From the NCBI GenBank assembly GCA_017983445.1, contig JAGOBJ010000001.1:125632-189631 (forward strand): a DNA stretch of 64,000 nt. Direction: 5' to 3'. Of the stretch, positions 53,557-61,029 are shown piece by piece. Below the pieces are notes generated by a model, which saw only the letters and a program-made list of their open reading frames with translations, was not told where the DNA came from and made no database searches. The stretch is from Halomonas sp. GTDB lineage: Bacteria > Pseudomonadota > Gammaproteobacteria > Pseudomonadales > Halomonadaceae. The position numbers were made by a program, and so were the translations under genes. Positions within the stretch are counted from its first letter, which is position 1, and each line of letters starts with the position of its first letter.

Positions 53557-54468
53557 ATGCAACACCTCGATCATTTTGACCCCGCCACGGCGACCGTTGC
53601 GCAAGCTTGCGACCTATCGGGCCAGCCCGAGCCTGATGACGCCAAACAAAAGCGTGAATTCAACAAGTTGCAAAAGCGGCTGCGGCGCGAGGTGGGTAAT
53701 GCCATCATCGATTACCAAATGATTAATGAGGGCGACCGCGTAATGGTCTGCCTGTCAGGTGGTAAAGACAGCTACACCATGCTGGAAATTCTGCGCAGCC
53801 TGCAGCGCAATGCGCCGGTGAATTTTTCGCTGGTGGCGGTCAATATGGACCAAAAGCAGCCCGGTTTTCCTGAGCATGTGTTGCCGCGCTACCTGGATAA
53901 ACTCGGCGTGGAATACCACATACTGGAGCGCGACACGTACTCGGTGGTGAAGGAGAAAACCCCCGAAGGCAAGACGACCTGTGCGCTATGTTCACGCTTG
54001 CGGCGCGGATCGCTTTACGGGTTTGCCGAAGAGATCGGGGCGAATAAAATTGCGCTGGGACATCATCGCGAAGATATTCTGGAAACGTTATTTCTGAATA
54101 TGTTTTTTGGCGGCACCTTGAAGTCGATGCCGCCCAAGCTGCTTTCCGATGACGGCAAAAATATCGTGATCCGTCCGCTGGCCTATTGCAAAGAAGCCGA
54201 TATCGCAGAGTTTTCCCGACTGATGGAATTTCCCATCATCCCCTGCAACCTGTGTGGTTCGCAGCCCAACATGCAACGTCAGGTCGTCAAGGAAATGCTT
54301 GCCGAGTGGGACAAGAAGCACCCCGGTCGCCTGGAAAGCATGTTCAAGGCGGTCACCAACGTTGCCCCTTCACAGCTGGCCGACCGTGAGCTATTTGATT
54401 TCGAAGGGCTGGAAGCCAAGCAGGAAGCGTTAATGGCTAGCCGCATTCAAACGCTTAGTGTGAATTGA
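53557..54468 (+). CDS. ttcA: tRNA 2-thiocytidine(32) synthetase
   Basis: PP-loop SGGKDS; [10 protein letters not shown]; LGHH; PCNLCGSQ. Confidence 0.96.
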
Positions 54469-55207
54469 TCGTTTGATCATCCTCTTCGGTAAGCGTAATC
54501 AAGCGCTGCATGTCGAGGATATTGACCTCCCGCCCAGAGACGGCCACCACTTTATGCTGCTGAAAGCGGCTTAAAATACGGCTGACCGTCTCGACGGCCA
54601 ATCCCAGATAGTTGCCTATGTCGGCTCGCGCCATGGAGAGTCGGAAGCTGTAAGGTGAGTAGCCCCGACGTCGAAAGCGTTCCGACAGCGTCAGTAAGAA
54701 ACTTGCCAGCCGCTGATCGGCGGTCTTGCGCGATAAAAGCCGCATCATGCGCCGGTCATCGCGAAGCTCCTTGCTCATGCTGCGATACAACTGGCCGCGC
54801 AGCTCAGGCAGCTCCTCGGAAAGCGAGTCCAGACGATCAAACGGGATCTCGCAAATGGTTGTGGTTTCCAGCGCAATCACGCTGCCGGGGTAGTGCTCTT
54901 CGTCAATGCCGTCCAGGCCCACCAGCTCGCTGGGCAGAAAGAAATTGGTAAGCTGGTCGTTACCGTTACCCTCGCTGGTCACCTGCTTCAAGCTGCCCGA
55001 GCGTACCGCGTAAACACTGGTAAAGCGGTCACCCTGACGAAAAAGCGGCTCGCCCTTCTTAAGCGGAGCCCGGCGCCGGATGATGGCATCAAACTGCCCC
55101 ATGTCTTCAAGCTCAAGTGCGAGCGGCAGACACAGCGAGCTTAAGCTGCAGGTCTGGCAACGTGCCTCTTGCAGAGGCGCGCGTCGTTGGCTTGCAGGTG
55201 GTGGCAT
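54455..55207 (-). CDS. anr: O2-sensing FNR/Anr transcription factor
   Basis: [10 protein letters not shown] plus TICEIP Cys ligands; [19 protein letters not shown]; RBS GGAGG. Confidence 0.93.
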
Positions 55208-55275
55208 GAGTCCCTCCCAGGTTCCGTCTTTTTTGCTCACAAAAGGGTATGTGCTGCACGCGCTCATTTGGCCCG

Positions 55276-56703
55276 CTAAACCATTTTTGAATAGCGTTGA
55301 TTGGACTCTTCGAGCCAATAGGCATCAAACGCCATGGCCAATTGGCGAATCAGTAAACGACCAATCGGCGTTGCGCTAAGCGTATCACCCAAGCGGGTGA
55401 TTAGCCCATCCTGCTCAGCGGTATGCAGCTTTTCTAACGCATGTGAAAAATAATCGGCAGCGTCAATCTGCCAGCGCTGGCTGATGGCGGCTAAATCCAG
55501 GCGCATATCGCACATCAAGCGTTCGATAACGTCGGCTCTGATAAGATCATCCTTGGTCAATTGCAGGCCTTTTACGGTGGCCAGTCGGCCTTGGTCCAAA
55601 GCGTTTTCATAGGTCGCCAAGTCAGCCGGGTTTTGCGCGTAGCTATCGCCTACGTGCGAAATAGCCGATACCCCAAGCCCGATCAAATCGCACTTCGCGT
55701 GGCTGGAATAGCCTTGAAAATTACGTTGCAGCGTGCCGTTGGTCTGGGCAAGCGCCAGGCTGTCTTCAGGTTTGGCAAAATGATCCATGCCGATATGCAC
55801 GTAGCCAGCGGCTGTTAGCATCTCGATAGTGGTGTGCAGGATTGAAAGCTTTTCATCAGCGCCCGGCAGGTCGTCGGCATTAATGCGCCGCTGGGGCTTA
55901 AACCGCGTGGGCAGGTGGGCGTAGTTAAACACCGACAGGCGCGCCGGACTCAGCTCAATCACTTGCCTCAGCGTCTCGGCAAAGCTCTTTTCGGTTTGAA
56001 AGGGCAGACCGTAGATTAAATCCAGATTGAGCGAACGAAATCCCAGGCGGTGCGCTTCATCCATCAACGTTTCGGTAAGTACGCGCGGCTGGTGACGATT
56101 GATCGCTTTTTGAACGCGCGGATCCAGATCCTGCACGCCCAGGCTCAGCCGGTTAAATCCCAATGACTGCAAGTGACGCAAAGTAAATACATCGGCCTCA
56201 CGCGGGTCGATTTCAATTGCGTAATCGCGATCTGGCGCGCTTGAAAGCCCGAACCGAGCATCCAGACGGTCAATTAGATCGCCCATCTGTGCCAGCGAAA
56301 GAAACGTCGGCGTTCCGCCACCCCAGTGAAGCTGTTTAACGGGCCGTGAGGTGTCCAGGTGACGCGCGGTGAGGACCATTTCGCGATCCAGCCGAGAGAG
56401 ATAAGGCTCCGCCAGCGCGGTATTTTTGGTAGCGATTTTATTACACGCGCAGTAAAAGCAGATTTGGCGACAAAACGGCACGTGAACATACAGCGAAAGC
56501 GGGCGCTGGCTGGCATTGCTCTGCTCAAGCGCTTGACCCAGGTTAACCGCCGTAAAGCCTTCATGAAAAGCCAGTGCGGTCGGGTAGGACGTGTACCGCG
56601 GGCCGCTTTTATCGTAGCGGCGCAGCAGCGCTTCATCCCAGTGAGCGCTAGGCAATCCCGCAGTTGTAACGGGCAGGGAGGCCGCAGTGGCATGAACGGA
56701 CAT
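55276..56703 (-). CDS. hemN: Oxygen-independent coproporphyrinogen III oxidase
   Basis: GPRYTSYPTA, CRQICFYCAC radical-SAM motif, HWGGGTP, LQRNFQGY. Confidence 0.97.
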   Translation of the reverse strand: MSVHATAASLPVTTAGLPSAHWDEALLRRYDKSGPRYTSYPTALAFHEGFTAVNLGQALEQSNASQRPLSLYVHVPFCRQICFYCACNKIATKNTALAEPYLSRLDREMVLTARHLDTSRPVKQLHWGGGTPTFLSLAQMGDLIDRLDARFGLSSAPDRDYAIEIDPREADVFTLRHLQSLGFNRLSLGVQDLDPRVQKAINRHQPRVLTETLMDEAHRLGFRSLNLDLIYGLPFQTEKSFAETLRQVIELSPARLSVFNYAHLPTRFKPQRRINADDLPGADEKLSILHTTIEMLTAAGYVHIGMDHFAKPEDSLALAQTNGTLQRNFQGYSSHAKCDLIGLGVSAISHVGDSYAQNPADLATYENALDQGRLATVKGLQLTKDDLIRADVIERLMCDMRLDLAAISQRWQIDAADYFSHALEKLHTAEQDGLITRLGDTLSATPIGRLLIRQLAMAFDAYWLEESNQRYSKMV

Positions 56704-56771: not shown

Positions 56772-56785
56772 TTGAGCTACGTCAA
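56772..56785. promoter_or_regulatory. Anr/FNR box upstream of hemN
   Basis: TTGAG-CTAC-GTCAA (TTGA-N6-TCAA), ~70 bp upstream of the hemN start. Confidence 0.65.
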
Positions 56786-57537
56786 TGATTGGTATGCGAG
56801 TGGGAATGATGTTGGGAGTCGGAGTGTGAGTGCGCGTGGTCGTGACCACCTAGATGAGCATTGAGCGTCCACAGCTGCCATAAGGCAAAGGCGATAATGG
56901 TTAGCGCCGCCAGGGTTCTGGTCGCCGGGTGACGGATAAGGTGGCCAAGCTTGCGCGCCGCTAGACCGGTAGCCAGCAGCGCAGGCAAGGTGCCCAGGCC
57001 AAACGCTCCCATCAGCAGCGCGCCTTGAAGCGGCTGGGCGATTGCCAGGCTCCACGCCAGCATTGAGTAAACTAACCCGCACGGCAGCCAACCCCATAGG
57101 GCGCCTAGCGCAAACGCCTGAGGGAAATGGACTACCGGCATCAAACGTCGCCCAACGGGTTCAAGGTGACGCCATAGGCGCTTTCCAACAGCTTCGACAC
57201 GCAAAAGTCCCTTCCACCAGTTGGCAATGTAGAGCGCCATTAAAATCAGCATTAGTGCCGCCAACCCCTGCAGTACCTGGCGGGCCAGGGGAGAAAGCGA
57301 AATCAGCGTGCCGAGGGCGGCGACCAAAGCACCTGCGGTCATGTAGCTTGTAATACGGCCCAGGTTGTAGCTCAGCAGCAGGCCGCCCATACGCGCTGGG
57401 CGGCGCATGCTGGGCGGTACGGCAAAGGTCAGCGCACTCATGATTCCCCCGCACATGCCAATACAGTGCGCACCGCCCATCAAACCAAACACAAACGCGG
57501 CGATAAGCGGTGGAAGATCAAGCCCGGTCGGATTCAT
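56782..57537 (-). CDS. DsbD_2/TauE-SafE-like membrane protein of cco loci, with His-rich tail
   Basis: GLMGGAHCIGMCGGI, YNLGRITSY, GWLPCGLVY, FGLGTLP. Confidence 0.88.
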   Translation of the reverse strand: MNPTGLDLPPLIAAFVFGLMGGAHCIGMCGGIMSALTFAVPPSMRRPARMGGLLLSYNLGRITSYMTAGALVAALGTLISLSPLARQVLQGLAALMLILMALYIANWWKGLLRVEAVGKRLWRHLEPVGRRLMPVVHFPQAFALGALWGWLPCGLVYSMLAWSLAIAQPLQGALLMGAFGLGTLPALLATGLAARKLGHLIRHPATRTLAALTIIAFALWQLWTLNAHLGGHDHAHSHSDSQHHSHSHTNH

Positions 57538-59342
57538 AACGCGCCTTTTGTAGCTGAAAGCGAAAGTGAGAGGCTGCGCGAAAAACGTAGCGTATTGGCG
57601 ATGACGGCGAGAACGCTAATCACGACGCCCAATACGGCTTCTGGCAAAGACAAAAAGCCCAGCGCCGCCAGGATAAATAAGATCAGGCTCATGCCTACGG
57701 CCAAGGCGCTAGTTTGGCGTATGCAGCGCTGCGTGGCGTGGGCAATGGCAAGAGTCTCGGAGGCTCGGACTTTGCGAGGGCTCAGTATGATCACATCAGG
57801 GTGCGAGGTTAAAGACTCACAAGCATGCGCTGTTTGCGCCAATGTCATCAGAGCGGAAGGCTTTTGTATTACCACGCCGCGCTTGCGCAACTGCTGGTAG
57901 CTGGCCATTAAGATCGCTGGGGTCGCCAGTGCTGGCGCACAGAAGCTACTCACTACCAGCAGTGAAAGCAGGGAGTCCAGTACCCAGGCTGATTCAAGCC
58001 ATCCGCCAATGACCGTAACGCTTAAACTCGCCATGAGTAAGCTACTCACCCAGCGGTGCACGTTTTGTGCGTTGATCGCCGCCAAGGGTTGCTCGCCCCA
58101 GGCACCCTTAACCTCGGCGCTAATATGCGCGGTGCGAGTATGCATGCCTACCCGGGATGCCTTGATGACCAGCTGGTTTTCCAGATTTTGGCAGCCAGCC
58201 AATACGCGATCACCCACTTGACGTGTTATGGGTAGCGGCTCGCCGGTCAGCACTGACTCATCCAGGCTCGACGCGCCTTGCTCGATCGTGCCGTCAACGG
58301 GAATTCGCTGGCCCGGTTTTACCACAACATGATCGCCAGGAGTAAGTTCACCCGTTGGCAGGATCCTTTCGCCGCCATCGTGATAAAGCCGAGTGGCCGA
58401 CGCAGGCAGAGCGTCTTTAAGCGTATGTTGAACACGCTCCAAGCCTAGGGACGATTTAACGTAGCCGCCCAGACACAAGAGCGTTGTCAGTAGGGCAATA
58501 AAGCCTGTGTAGTGCTCCCCAACATGAAACAGTGTTGCGTAGCCACTGGTCAGGTAAGCGATGCTCAAGGCTAAGCTGATAGGTACTGACGGGCCAAGCA
58601 GACAGCGCCGTATATCGATAAACGCGCGACTGAAAAAAGGCGGTGTAGCGAATAGCATCACCGCGGTGGCTAAGACAAAGGGCAACCAGTGAAGCAGCGT
58701 ATAAACATGCGAATTAACGTCTTCTAATGCTGCACTCTGTAAAATAAACGTTAGCAGAGCGATGCTGGCAAGACTTGCCCCCGAGATTCCCAGCCGCCAG
58801 GCGTTTACACGCTTTTTACGTCGCCATTGCTCCTGAGCGGGGTCGGGCTCAAACGGCAGAGCGCTGTAACCGATAGTGGCAAGCTCGGCCAGTAGTTGAG
58901 AGAGTTTAAGCTGGTGGGTATGCCAGCTAACGCGCAGGCGATGGCGAGATAAATCCACCGCGCTTGCGGTGATGCCCTCAAGGGCGTTTAGGCGATGCTC
59001 GATAAGCCAGGCACAGGCGTTGCAGGTGATGCCTTCGACCGCAAGGGTCGCGCTTAGCTGATCAGTATCGCTGCTAAGCGTTACAAACGTGGCCTGGCGC
59101 TCAAGGCTATCAAAGTGCTCCCAGGCGTTGCTGTCAAGCGCCTCATTGACGGGCTTGCCGGGCAGGTCGGTACGCTGGTGGTAATAGCTTTCCAGGCCGC
59201 CCTGTACAATGGCGTGCGCTACGGCTTCGCAACCTGGGCAGCACAGAGAGTGCGTAGTATCGGCCAGCGTGATTTGCCAAGGCGCATTGGCTGGTACGGG
59301 GCTGCCGCAATGGTAGCAGGGGGAGGCTGTTGGCGTTGTCAT
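57534..59342 (-). CDS. Degenerate CcoI/FixI-like P1B-ATPase lacking P and N domains
   Basis: N-terminal CYHC...CCPGC and HMA GITCNAC; A-domain DESVLTGEP; no DKTGT, no GDG.ND; only 602 aa. Confidence 0.85.
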   Translation of the reverse strand: MTTPTASPCYHCGSPVPANAPWQITLADTTHSLCCPGCEAVAHAIVQGGLESYYHQRTDLPGKPVNEALDSNAWEHFDSLERQATFVTLSSDTDQLSATLAVEGITCNACAWLIEHRLNALEGITASAVDLSRHRLRVSWHTHQLKLSQLLAELATIGYSALPFEPDPAQEQWRRKKRVNAWRLGISGASLASIALLTFILQSAALEDVNSHVYTLLHWLPFVLATAVMLFATPPFFSRAFIDIRRCLLGPSVPISLALSIAYLTSGYATLFHVGEHYTGFIALLTTLLCLGGYVKSSLGLERVQHTLKDALPASATRLYHDGGERILPTGELTPGDHVVVKPGQRIPVDGTIEQGASSLDESVLTGEPLPITRQVGDRVLAGCQNLENQLVIKASRVGMHTRTAHISAEVKGAWGEQPLAAINAQNVHRWVSSLLMASLSVTVIGGWLESAWVLDSLLSLLVVSSFCAPALATPAILMASYQQLRKRGVVIQKPSALMTLAQTAHACESLTSHPDVIILSPRKVRASETLAIAHATQRCIRQTSALAVGMSLILFILAALGFLSLPEAVLGVVISVLAVIANTLRFSRSLSLSLSATKGAL

Positions 59343-59438
59343 GGCTTGGCTGACAGCTTTAGAACTAACCGTTTGGTTAATGCGTTATCTGGCAATTGTG
59401 TTTCCTTACAATGAGCGCTGCCTAACCGATATGGCATC

Positions 59439-59470
59439 TATCCACAGGTTCTATTATCCACAGGTTCTAT
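59439..59470. repeat. Perfect 16-bp tandem duplication carrying DnaA-box sequences
   Basis: TATCCACAGGTTCTAT x2; yields CTATCCACA (59438-59446) and TTATCCACA (59454-59462). Confidence 0.9.
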
Positions 59471-59604
59471 CTACCTACGGGGCCTAGCGGTTAACGTGTG
59501 AAAAGGTTAGCAGTATTGACGGGAAGGGCGCGAGTTTCGTCGTGATGCCTGCCTATCGCTTGATGATTTTTTGTACCAACCTTAACGCGAAGGAGAGAAC
59601 GGTC

Positions 59605-60457: not shown

Positions 60458-60533
60458 GGGTGGTTAGCTCAGTTGGGAGAGCACCAGCCTTACAAGCTGG
60501 GGGTCACTGGTTCGAACCCAGTACCACCCACCA
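60458..60533 (+). tRNA. tRNA-Val (TAC)
   Basis: 76 nt GGGTGGTTAGCTCAG...CCTTACAAGC...CCCACCA. Confidence 0.98.
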
Positions 60534-60593
60534 TCGAAAGATGGCCTGGAAACGTAAAGCAGTACCAGAGTAATATCAGCATGATGCAACAGC

Positions 60594-60670
60594 GGACCGG
60601 TAGTTCAGTTGGTTAGAATGCCGGCCTGTCACGCCGGAGGTCGCGAGTTCGAGTCTCGTCCGGTCCGCCA
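60594..60670 (+). tRNA. tRNA-Asp (GTC)
   Basis: 77 nt GGACCGGTAGTTCAG...CCTGTCACGCC...CCGCCA. Confidence 0.98.
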
Positions 60671-60709
60671 TCATCATACTTTTTTGCTTTGTAGCAGTTA
60701 TCGCTATTC

Positions 60710-60786
60710 GGACCGGTAGTTCAGTTGGTTAGAATGCCGGCCTGTCACGCCGGAGGTCGCGAGTTCGAGTCTCGTCCGGTCCGCCA
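60710..60786 (+). tRNA. tRNA-Asp (GTC)
   Basis: Identical to 60594-60670. Confidence 0.98.
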
Positions 60787-60825
60787 CGATAACTTGCAGA
60801 TTGGTTGATTTAAGATCAACACCCT

Positions 60826-60901
60826 GGGTGGTTAGCTCAGTTGGGAGAGCACCAGCCTTACAAGCTGGGGGTCACTGGTTCGAACCCAGTACCACCCACC
60901 A
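60826..60901 (+). tRNA. tRNA-Val (TAC)
   Basis: Identical to 60458-60533. Confidence 0.98.
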
Positions 60902-60952
60902 TTTAAAGTCCTTTTAAATGGTGGTAGTCGTAATAGAAAGTGCCTTATTTGT

Positions 60953-61029
60953 GGACCGGTAGTTCAGTTGGTTAGAATGCCGGCCTGTCACGCCGGAGGT
61001 CGCGAGTTCGAGTCTCGTCCGGTCCGCCA
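60953..61029 (+). tRNA. tRNA-Asp (GTC)
   Basis: Identical to 60594-60670. Confidence 0.98.

Follow-up and report, generated by a model that had tools for sequence, protein, structure and literature searches.

CcoI, a P1B-ATPase, exports the Cu(I) with which cbb3 oxidase is metallated, and P-type ATPases as a class are defined by their phosphorylation cycle. The present analysis concerns a gene, termed ccoI' here, which encodes a CcoI orthologue of 602 amino acids (aa) from which the catalytic core is missing. It is located in a stretch of 64,000 nt of Halomonas sp. (GCA_017983445.1, JAGOBJ010000001.1:125,632-189,631, forward strand). This whole stretch is referred to as the window, and coordinates are those of the window unless another contig is named. 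The ccoI' product is predicted to be no longer a pump, and its sequence is nevertheless held by purifying selection in a clade of Vreelandella and Halomonas species.

The N-terminal part of CcoI carries two metal sites. In R. capsulatus CcoI it is the CopZ-like site that acquires Cu(I), and the glutaredoxin-like one has a modulating effect on activity; the function of the N-terminal domain is still debated (PMC8475189). Metal-binding modules of this kind can also operate outside a pump. The first metal-binding domain of E. coli CopA is reported to be made also as a separate chaperone, CopA(Z), by programmed frameshifting (Meydan et al. 2017, cited in PMC7558416). CupA is a membrane-anchored copper chaperone encoded beside its membrane partner (PMC7558416).

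ccoI' resembles CcoI/FixI/CtpA, to which it is orthologous, in having both N-terminal sites, an A (actuator) domain with TGE and a scaffold of eight transmembrane (TM) helices. It differs in lacking the P and N domains and the CPC, YN and MxxSS motifs, in evolving 5-10 times faster, and in residing in a genome without cbb3 oxidase, CcoG, CcoH and CcoS. With CopA(Z) it has in common that the metal-binding N-terminus of a P1B pump is employed on its own, without pumping. CopA(Z), however, is small, soluble and made alongside an intact pump from the same gene, whereas in ccoI' the pump has been permanently disabled by deletion, the protein is membrane-anchored and no intact copy exists. Like CupA, ccoI' is a membrane-tethered, putative cytosolic copper binder whose gene lies beside that of a membrane partner. 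In contrast, CupA is anchored by one TM segment, folds like a cupredoxin and works for an active CopA pump, and the two proteins are unrelated in sequence. HMA/CopZ-like metallochaperones share the ferredoxin-like HMA fold with its CxxC loop, but in ccoI' this fold is tethered to an 8-TM body. The putative partner of ccoI' is a DsbD_2-family protein known from intact gammaproteobacterial ccoGHIS clusters, where the same gene is found in the same position downstream of ccoS and with the same coupling; the DsbD_2 of the core-less clade differs by a His-rich tail and would work without CcoS or an active CcoI.

Architecture of ccoI'

The gene and its parts, together with the overlap to the downstream gene, are as follows.

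57534..59342 (-): ccoI', 602-aa core-less orthologue of the CcoI/FixI (CopA2-type) Cu P1B-ATPase, ATG start (open reading frame, domains, synteny)
59079..59318 (-): Cys-rich N-terminal domain (ATPase-cat_bd, residues 9-88) with CYHC and CCPGC; PF12156, E=1e-21
58866..59048 (-): HMA (CopZ-like) domain, residues 99-159, metal loop GITCNAC; PF00403
58446..58841 (-): helices MA, MB, M1 and M2, residues 168-299 (helices of the AlphaFold2 model)
58143..58412 (-): A domain, residues 311-400, TGE retained; PF00122, E=2e-34
57885..58136 (-): helices M3-M4, residues 403-486, former CPC site reading SFC at 57939-57947 (alignment)
57771..57884 (-): P-domain stub, residues 487-524, junction of the ~220-residue in-frame deletion (alignment)
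57540..57770 (-): helices M5-M6, residues 525-601, YN/MxxSS replaced by MS/VISV (alignment; AlphaFold2 helices 525-560 and 566-601)
57534..57537 (-): ATGA overlap of the ccoI' stop with the DsbD_2 start (list of open reading frames)

Pfam assigns ATPase-cat_bd (9-88), HMA (99-159) and E1-E2_ATPase (313-488, the A domain with flanking helices) to ccoI', and finds neither a Hydrolase/HAD domain nor a match to PF00702. The NCBIfam models of P1B-ATPases are matched only over profile positions 3-250 of 560, with scores far under their cut-offs, and the CopZ models match the HMA domain (PF00403 E=1e-10). Aligned to full-length CcoI from Halomonadaceae, the chain reads ...RGVVIQKPSALMTLAQTAHACESLTSHPDVIILSPR..., so that LAQTAH is followed by ACESLTSH and then by PDVIILSPR. 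Between M4 and M5 about 220 residues are absent, including DKTGT, the entire N domain and GDGxND. The membrane copper ligands have been replaced as well: CPC by SFC (residues 466-468), YN by MS and MxxSS by VISV. CYHC, CCPGC, GITCNAC and LTGEP are retained.

An earlier sequence-only reading of the window had already described a CcoI-like P1B-ATPase with a cleanly removed catalytic core, and the Pfam, NCBIfam and alignment results bear this out. Its further observations, namely altered membrane copper ligands and 602 open codons in which CYHC, CCPGC, GITCNAC and TGEP are kept, were reproduced by the alignment and the reading frame. Since the P and N domains are deleted and no conserved intramembrane metal site is left, ccoI' is predicted to be incapable of phosphorylation or ATP binding and is, on these grounds, not a pump.

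DKTGT, CPC and GDGxND are present in 136/136 full-length CcoI-like representatives found in an exhaustive search of 1.84 billion representative proteins. Hence, the absence of the core in ccoI' is exceptional and not a variant within the family. An assembly artefact can be dismissed too: this architecture is also seen in 10 more genomes and contigs, each sequenced independently. Only three core-less architectures were found among these representatives: the main clade to which ccoI' belongs, and two further forms (P0053 and P0273) treated below. Other short representatives were rejected as core-less forms, being C-terminally cut fragments that still contain CPC and DKTGT.

The AlphaFold2 model of ccoI' has a mean predicted local distance difference test score (pLDDT) of 84 and a predicted template modelling score (pTM) of 0.76. 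It comprises the two N-terminal domains, eight TM helices and the A-domain barrel, and a stub of about 30 residues replaces the P domain as a small strand-helix-helix-strand unit. The HMA fold (residues 95-163) is beta-alpha-beta-beta-alpha-beta. The best fold matches in the PDB are Cu P1B-ATPases, and the A domain matches 2hc8 with a TMt of 0.93. The modelled fold is thus confident and pump-like, except for the absent P and N domains.

The locus and the loss of cbb3 oxidase

In V. titanicae the order of genes is glcEF, HbpS-like, Abhydrolase_11 (-), ccoNOQP, ccoG, ccoH, ccoI (830 aa), ccoS, DsbD_2, hemN and fnr, with overlaps in the pairs ccoH/ccoI, ccoI/ccoS and ccoS/DsbD_2. The flanks in the window are the same, but between Abhydrolase_11 and hemN just the trimmed ccoI and DsbD_2 are left. 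In a tree, ccoI' groups with the CcoI sequences of Halomonadaceae. By position and phylogeny, ccoI' is a vertical descendant of ccoI.

The genome from which the window originates (3.9 Mb, 100% complete) was searched by tblastn, and no ccoN, O, P, G, H or S was detected; there was also no FixO match and no second gene with PF12156. A second ccoI or a cbb3 oxidase elsewhere in this genome can be discarded: of its two remaining P-type ATPases, one is an exporter of the CopA1 type and one a generic P1B pump near a COX1 gene, and neither has the CcoI N-terminus. The search for a full-length ccoI elsewhere, proposed along with the sequence-only reading, therefore yielded none of the CcoI type. The complete generic P1B-ATPase (728 aa; C16:294114-299069) lies about 1.5 kb from the COX1-family gene (867-aa frame), and may be a copper-delivery pump for this adjacent oxidase.

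In the lineage of ccoI', ccoNOQP, ccoG, ccoH and ccoS were deleted; the P and N domains were lost as well through an in-frame deletion, and the membrane copper sites decayed thereafter.

Distribution and origin of the core-less forms

Nine further short forms with 50-83% identity were found in Vreelandella/Halomonas genomes, metagenome-assembled genomes and metagenome contigs, and H. citrativorans provides the eleventh lineage. The short forms, those of cultured strains such as V. songnenensis and H. citrativorans included, thus represent no fewer than 11 lineages at the species level, all in one Vreelandella/Halomonas clade. Deletion boundaries and gene context are identical in all of them, each has lost ccoNOQP, ccoG, ccoH and ccoS, and the former CPC site varies (SFC, SLC, SPC, SPF). 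They are monophyletic in the hemN tree (support 97-98), in the CcoI tree (99) and in the combined hemN, fnr and DsbD_2 tree (100), single-locus or three-locus trees that serve as proxies for the species tree, and the internal topologies agree. Identical boundaries and a single clade of matching topology indicate one ancestral in-frame deletion that was inherited vertically and since which hemN has diverged to 80% amino-acid identity. Whether the deletion is common to the family at a dN/dS (ratio of nonsynonymous to synonymous substitution rates) below 1 had been suggested as a check on the sequence-only reading; both were found within this clade.

A sample of 201 Halomonadaceae genomes was profiled for PF12156 (the CcoI N-terminus) and FixO. 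The short frame occurs in 4/201 genomes (G000, G191, G139, G155), all without FixO, and FixO is present in 124/124 other PF12156-positive genomes. Eight other genomes of the same genus without FixO are also without both ccoI' and DsbD_2. In 7/7 of these double-negative genomes examined (loci L010-L016 of G143, G167, G193, G034, G127, G095 and G073), Abhydrolase_11 directly abuts hemN with about 150 bp left. They form a separate clade in the hemN tree (support 100) and represent a separate route of cbb3 loss.

Six Halomonadaceae genomes of genus g17 (G017, G038, G055, G066, G077, G088), have a divergent FixO (E ~1e-41 to 1e-48) and no PF12156 domain. Presumably a CcoI that lacks the Cys-rich N-terminal domain serves their cbb3 oxidase, or no CcoI does.

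The second core-less form, P0053, is encoded at the metagenomic locus L020 and has 696 aa. It has lost the N domain, FIGTS stands in place of DKTGT and VDNCNN in place of GDGxND; the context is likewise free of cbb3 genes. By its neighbouring genes L020 is placed among genomes with a full cluster (support 93/97), but a joint grouping with the short clade is not rejected by the approximately unbiased test (p=0.15), and the CcoI tree together with a common upstream motif points to joint ancestry. The L020 form may be independent of the short clade.

The third form is the CcoI of Halomonas dongshanensis (P0273, locus L049). With 535 aa it has other deletion boundaries and is also without MA, MB and the CPC site, and it retains CYHC, CCPGC, ITCAAC and LTGE. 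The gene is located between glcF/HbpS and an overlapping DsbD_2 whose His tail is even longer, and cco genes are absent. H. dongshanensis branches outside the short clade and is without the upstream motif of that clade. This looks like an independent origin. No clear excess of convergent residue states was found in the two forms: L020 has 8 short-clade versus 5 full-length states and L049 has 5 versus 5. At the H. dongshanensis locus an extra 321-aa secreted esterase-like frame (PF00756; L049:10514-11479, +) is located between DsbD_2 and hemN, and Abhydrolase_11 is missing upstream.

Selection on ccoI'

At matched species divergence (hemN 80-85% identical), intact CcoI proteins are 89% identical over the columns retained in ccoI', whereas the ccoI' proteins are 47-64% identical. 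Consequently, constraint on ccoI' is strongly relaxed. Calculated according to Nei-Gojobori, dN/dS of ccoI' is 0.22-0.30 in eight pairs, compared with 0.02-0.06 for intact ccoI and 0.04-0.14 for hemN and DsbD_2; the ccoI' figures rest mainly on the closer pairs, since dS is near saturation in the deeper ones. The HMA domain alone has a dN/dS of 0.08-0.23. Pooled over four phylogenetically independent pairs, with 95% bootstrap confidence intervals (CI), the values are:

Whole ccoI': 0.27 (CI 0.24-0.30)
Soluble N-terminus: 0.19 (CI 0.15-0.24)
A domain: 0.22 (CI 0.15-0.29)
Membrane part: 0.32 (CI 0.27-0.37)
P stub: 0.32 (CI 0.22-0.50)

The reading frame is intact in 11 lineages. No stop codon was found in any short-form ccoI', although 3.3% of point changes would create one, and each of the roughly 15 independent indels inside the gene has a length divisible by three. 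A pseudogene in neutral decay is rejected by the intact frames, the dN/dS of 0.27 and the in-frame indels. Relatives with stops or frameshifts, which would have spoken against the sequence-only reading, were not encountered among these sequences.

Positions that are invariant in the pumps were retained to very different degrees in the short forms. The fractions still invariant are:

HMA domain: 84%
Cys-rich metal-binding domain 1 (MBD1): 66%
A domain: 49%
TM segments: 13-19% (MA, MB, M1 and M2: 13%)
P stub: 4%

The sequence-only reading had stressed that the soluble metal sites are selectively retained, and the contrast of HMA and MBD1 with the TM segments agrees well with that. The Cys motifs CYHC and CCPGC are invariant across short, intermediate and full forms, and LTGE is found in all forms but one (LSGE). 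In the short clade 25 positions have been fixed to a new residue, one of them an A-to-N exchange inside the CxxC loop of the HMA domain. Taken at the sequence level, these data show that purifying selection keeps the frame of ccoI', both cytosolic Cys-rich metal-binding domains, the A domain and the membrane body.

The putative partner protein DsbD_2

The gene downstream of ccoI' is its neighbour in every short form.

56782..57537 (-): DsbD_2-family protein with six TM helices, 251 aa; PF13386, E=1e-54
56785..56856 (-): His/Ser-rich C-terminal tail of DsbD_2 (HLGGHDHAHSHSDSQHHSHSHTNH), predicted periplasmic

DsbD_2 is 85-97% identical across the short-form clade (dN/dS 0.04-0.12), with the motifs GGAHCIGMCGG (HCxGMCGG) in TM1 and WLPCG in TM4 invariant. 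The overlap of the ccoI' stop with the DsbD_2 start (4, 11 or 20 nt) is kept in all short forms, L020 and H. dongshanensis, and from this arrangement the two genes are predicted to be translationally coupled. Within the sampled genus both genes are present in 4 genomes without FixO, neither in 8 and just one in 0; thus, they are kept or lost together.

The His tail occurs in DsbD_2 of every short-form genome; L020 and 17 genomes of the genus with a full cluster do not have it. It is disordered in the AlphaFold2 model, and the charges of the loops (14 Lys and Arg inside versus 1 outside) place it in the periplasm by prediction.

Database names for DsbD_2 are generic (sulfite exporter TauE/SafE family, UreH-like, copper resistance protein). 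A literature search retrieved no study specific to the DsbD_2 downstream of ccoS or to core-less P1B-ATPases. A transposon sequencing (Tn-seq) table lists PA1547, a putative equivalent of this DsbD_2, as a fitness gene.

Proposed function and alternatives

DsbD_2 and the N-terminus of CcoI are the sole survivors of the cbb3 assembly line in these genomes and hence probably act together. We consider it somewhat probable that ccoI' is a non-pumping, membrane-tethered cytosolic metal-binding partner of DsbD_2, either a chaperone or a sensor. It would be made in a fixed ratio with the adjacent DsbD_2 and work together with it, its TM body and A domain serving as anchor and docking scaffold. DsbD_2 would contribute its H-C-x-x-M-C / P-C motif within the membrane and, on the periplasmic side, an antenna rich in His. 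As a relay that needs no ATP, the pair may hand on copper, or some other thiophilic or His-binding metal, at the inner membrane or across it. The His-rich tail and the intramembrane Cys/Met/His motif of DsbD_2 would fit a metal permease. The sequence-only reading had favoured repurposing over slow decay; the shared deletion, dN/dS, the in-frame indels, the domain-selective constraint and the joint retention or loss with DsbD_2 point the same way.

A wider proposal is put forward tentatively. According to it, loss of cbb3 would repeatedly (2-3 times in Halomonadaceae) have turned CcoI into a dead pseudo-pump, which with DsbD_2 would form a new ATP-independent two-protein metal relay: a periplasmic His antenna, an intramembrane Cys/Met/His site and a tethered cytosolic Cys-rich acceptor. 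By extension, DsbD_2 could be the as yet unassigned partner that handles copper in the membrane for CcoI wherever gammaproteobacteria have ccoGHIS clusters.

Several points weigh against a functional metal-binding pair. Constraint on ccoI' is 5-10 times weaker than on the intact pump, as would likewise be expected of a gene that is being lost. In a sister clade both genes have been cleanly deleted, so some backgrounds can do without the pair. Upstream of ccoI' neither a Shine-Dalgarno sequence nor a sigma-70 consensus promoter is evident. The AlphaFold2 model of DsbD_2 is weak (pLDDT 62), and a Foldseek search with it gave no match better than E=0.3, so that permease and thiol conduit are not separated. 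The His tail, moreover, had to be dropped as a marker of the core-less state: a Met/His tail is also found on the DsbD_2 of H. caseinilytica beside an intact CcoI, and such tails are therefore a recurrent feature of the family.

ccoI' could be an expressed remnant without a function of its own, kept open only for the coupling to DsbD_2 and by selection that avoids a toxic, misfolding membrane protein, and slowly decaying. The conserved stop-start overlap and a rate 5-10 times above that of intact CcoI agree with such a remnant, as do membrane metal sites and a P stub that are essentially unconstrained at the residue level, the dispensability of the whole pair in the sister clade, and a stepwise shrinkage from L020 (696 aa) through the short clade (~600 aa) to H. 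dongshanensis (535 aa). Coupling, however, needs only a translated 3' end and leaves unexplained that the Cys motifs and 84% of the HMA-invariant positions have stayed fixed over a divergence that brought hemN down to 80% identity. Furthermore, there is no lineage in which ccoI' is cut to a leader peptide or lost while DsbD_2 stays, the same parts (MBD1, HMA and A domain with TGE) are kept in L020 and in the apparently independent H. dongshanensis, and a clade-specific substitution has been fixed inside the metal loop of the HMA domain. We therefore regard a mere remnant as unlikely.

Two other roles would also make use of the conserved parts. DsbD_2 might be a CcdA/DsbD-like thiol conduit, and the glutaredoxin-like CxxC/CCxxC domain of ccoI' the tethered cytosolic electron donor for the reduction of a periplasmic target. 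DsbD_2 indeed belongs to a Pfam family related to DsbD/CcdA and has Cys residues in TM1 and within a PC motif of TM4, a glutaredoxin-like character has been described for the first of the N-terminal sites of CcoI (PMC8475189), and both N-terminal domains are conserved along with the pairing. Such a redox relay is nevertheless quite improbable, as the His- and Met/His-rich tails and the H-C-x-x-M-C motif of DsbD_2 resemble metal ligands, the most conserved part of ccoI', HMA, is a metal-binding fold, and the locus contains no gene for a periplasmic thioredoxin-like partner. Alternatively, ccoI' could still be a transporter whose 8-TM body allows passive or proton-driven metal flux without ATP, gated by the N-terminal domains. 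Eight confidently predicted TM helices and a dN/dS of 0.32 in the membrane part, i.e. below 1, are compatible with transport, but CPC, YN and MxxSS have been replaced differently by lineage (SFC, SLC, SPC, SPF, AYP, GVL), only 13-19% of the pump-invariant TM positions are retained and two helices are gone in H. dongshanensis. Transport by ccoI' itself is thus highly improbable.

A P-type ATPase that has no P and N domains and has nevertheless long been under selection, in more than one lineage, would be a natural pseudo-pump. ccoI' would then show which parts of a pump have value on their own, namely the two N-terminal metal sites, the A domain and the membrane anchor, and would amount to a natural dissection of the function of the CcoI N-terminal domain. 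In the short-form genomes the joint function of DsbD_2 and this domain could be studied free of the oxidase. Since short forms are annotated, for example, as "P-type E1-E2 ATPase", metabolic reconstructions should not treat them as copper exporters.

Upstream region and further observations

A conserved motif precedes ccoI'.

59385..59407 (-): AAGGAAACACAATTGCCAGATAA, candidate promoter or operator some 65 nt ahead of the ccoI' ATG (locus comparison)

The AAGGAAACACAATTGCCAGATAA motif is present at all short-form loci and in L020, and is missing from 6 full cco clusters and from H. dongshanensis. An FNR/Anr box was looked for upstream of ccoI' and not found, and the region has no homology to the regions upstream of ccoN, ccoG or ccoI in intact clusters. 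Further upstream, a tandem duplication of about 17 nt (AGAACCTGTGGATAAT AGAACCTGTGGATAGAT; 59440-59475, -) occurs in the window genome only; the closest relatives (L017, L021, L025) are single-copy.

An FNR/Anr-type box, TTGAC-GTAG-CTCAA (56772-56785, -), coincides in part with the DsbD_2 stop, some 70 nt ahead of hemN. Hence, hemN seems to be driven by an anaerobic promoter of its own, distinct from that of ccoI'-DsbD_2. The fnr/anr frame itself (54455-55318, -) is listed with a TTG start and 287 aa. Since its orthologues have 248-250 aa, translation probably begins at an internal ATG some 37 codons further downstream. Five clustered tRNA genes (Val-TAC, Asp-GTC, Asp-GTC, Val-TAC, Asp-GTC) occupy 60458-61029 (+), in the interval that separates Abhydrolase_11 from the HbpS-like gene.

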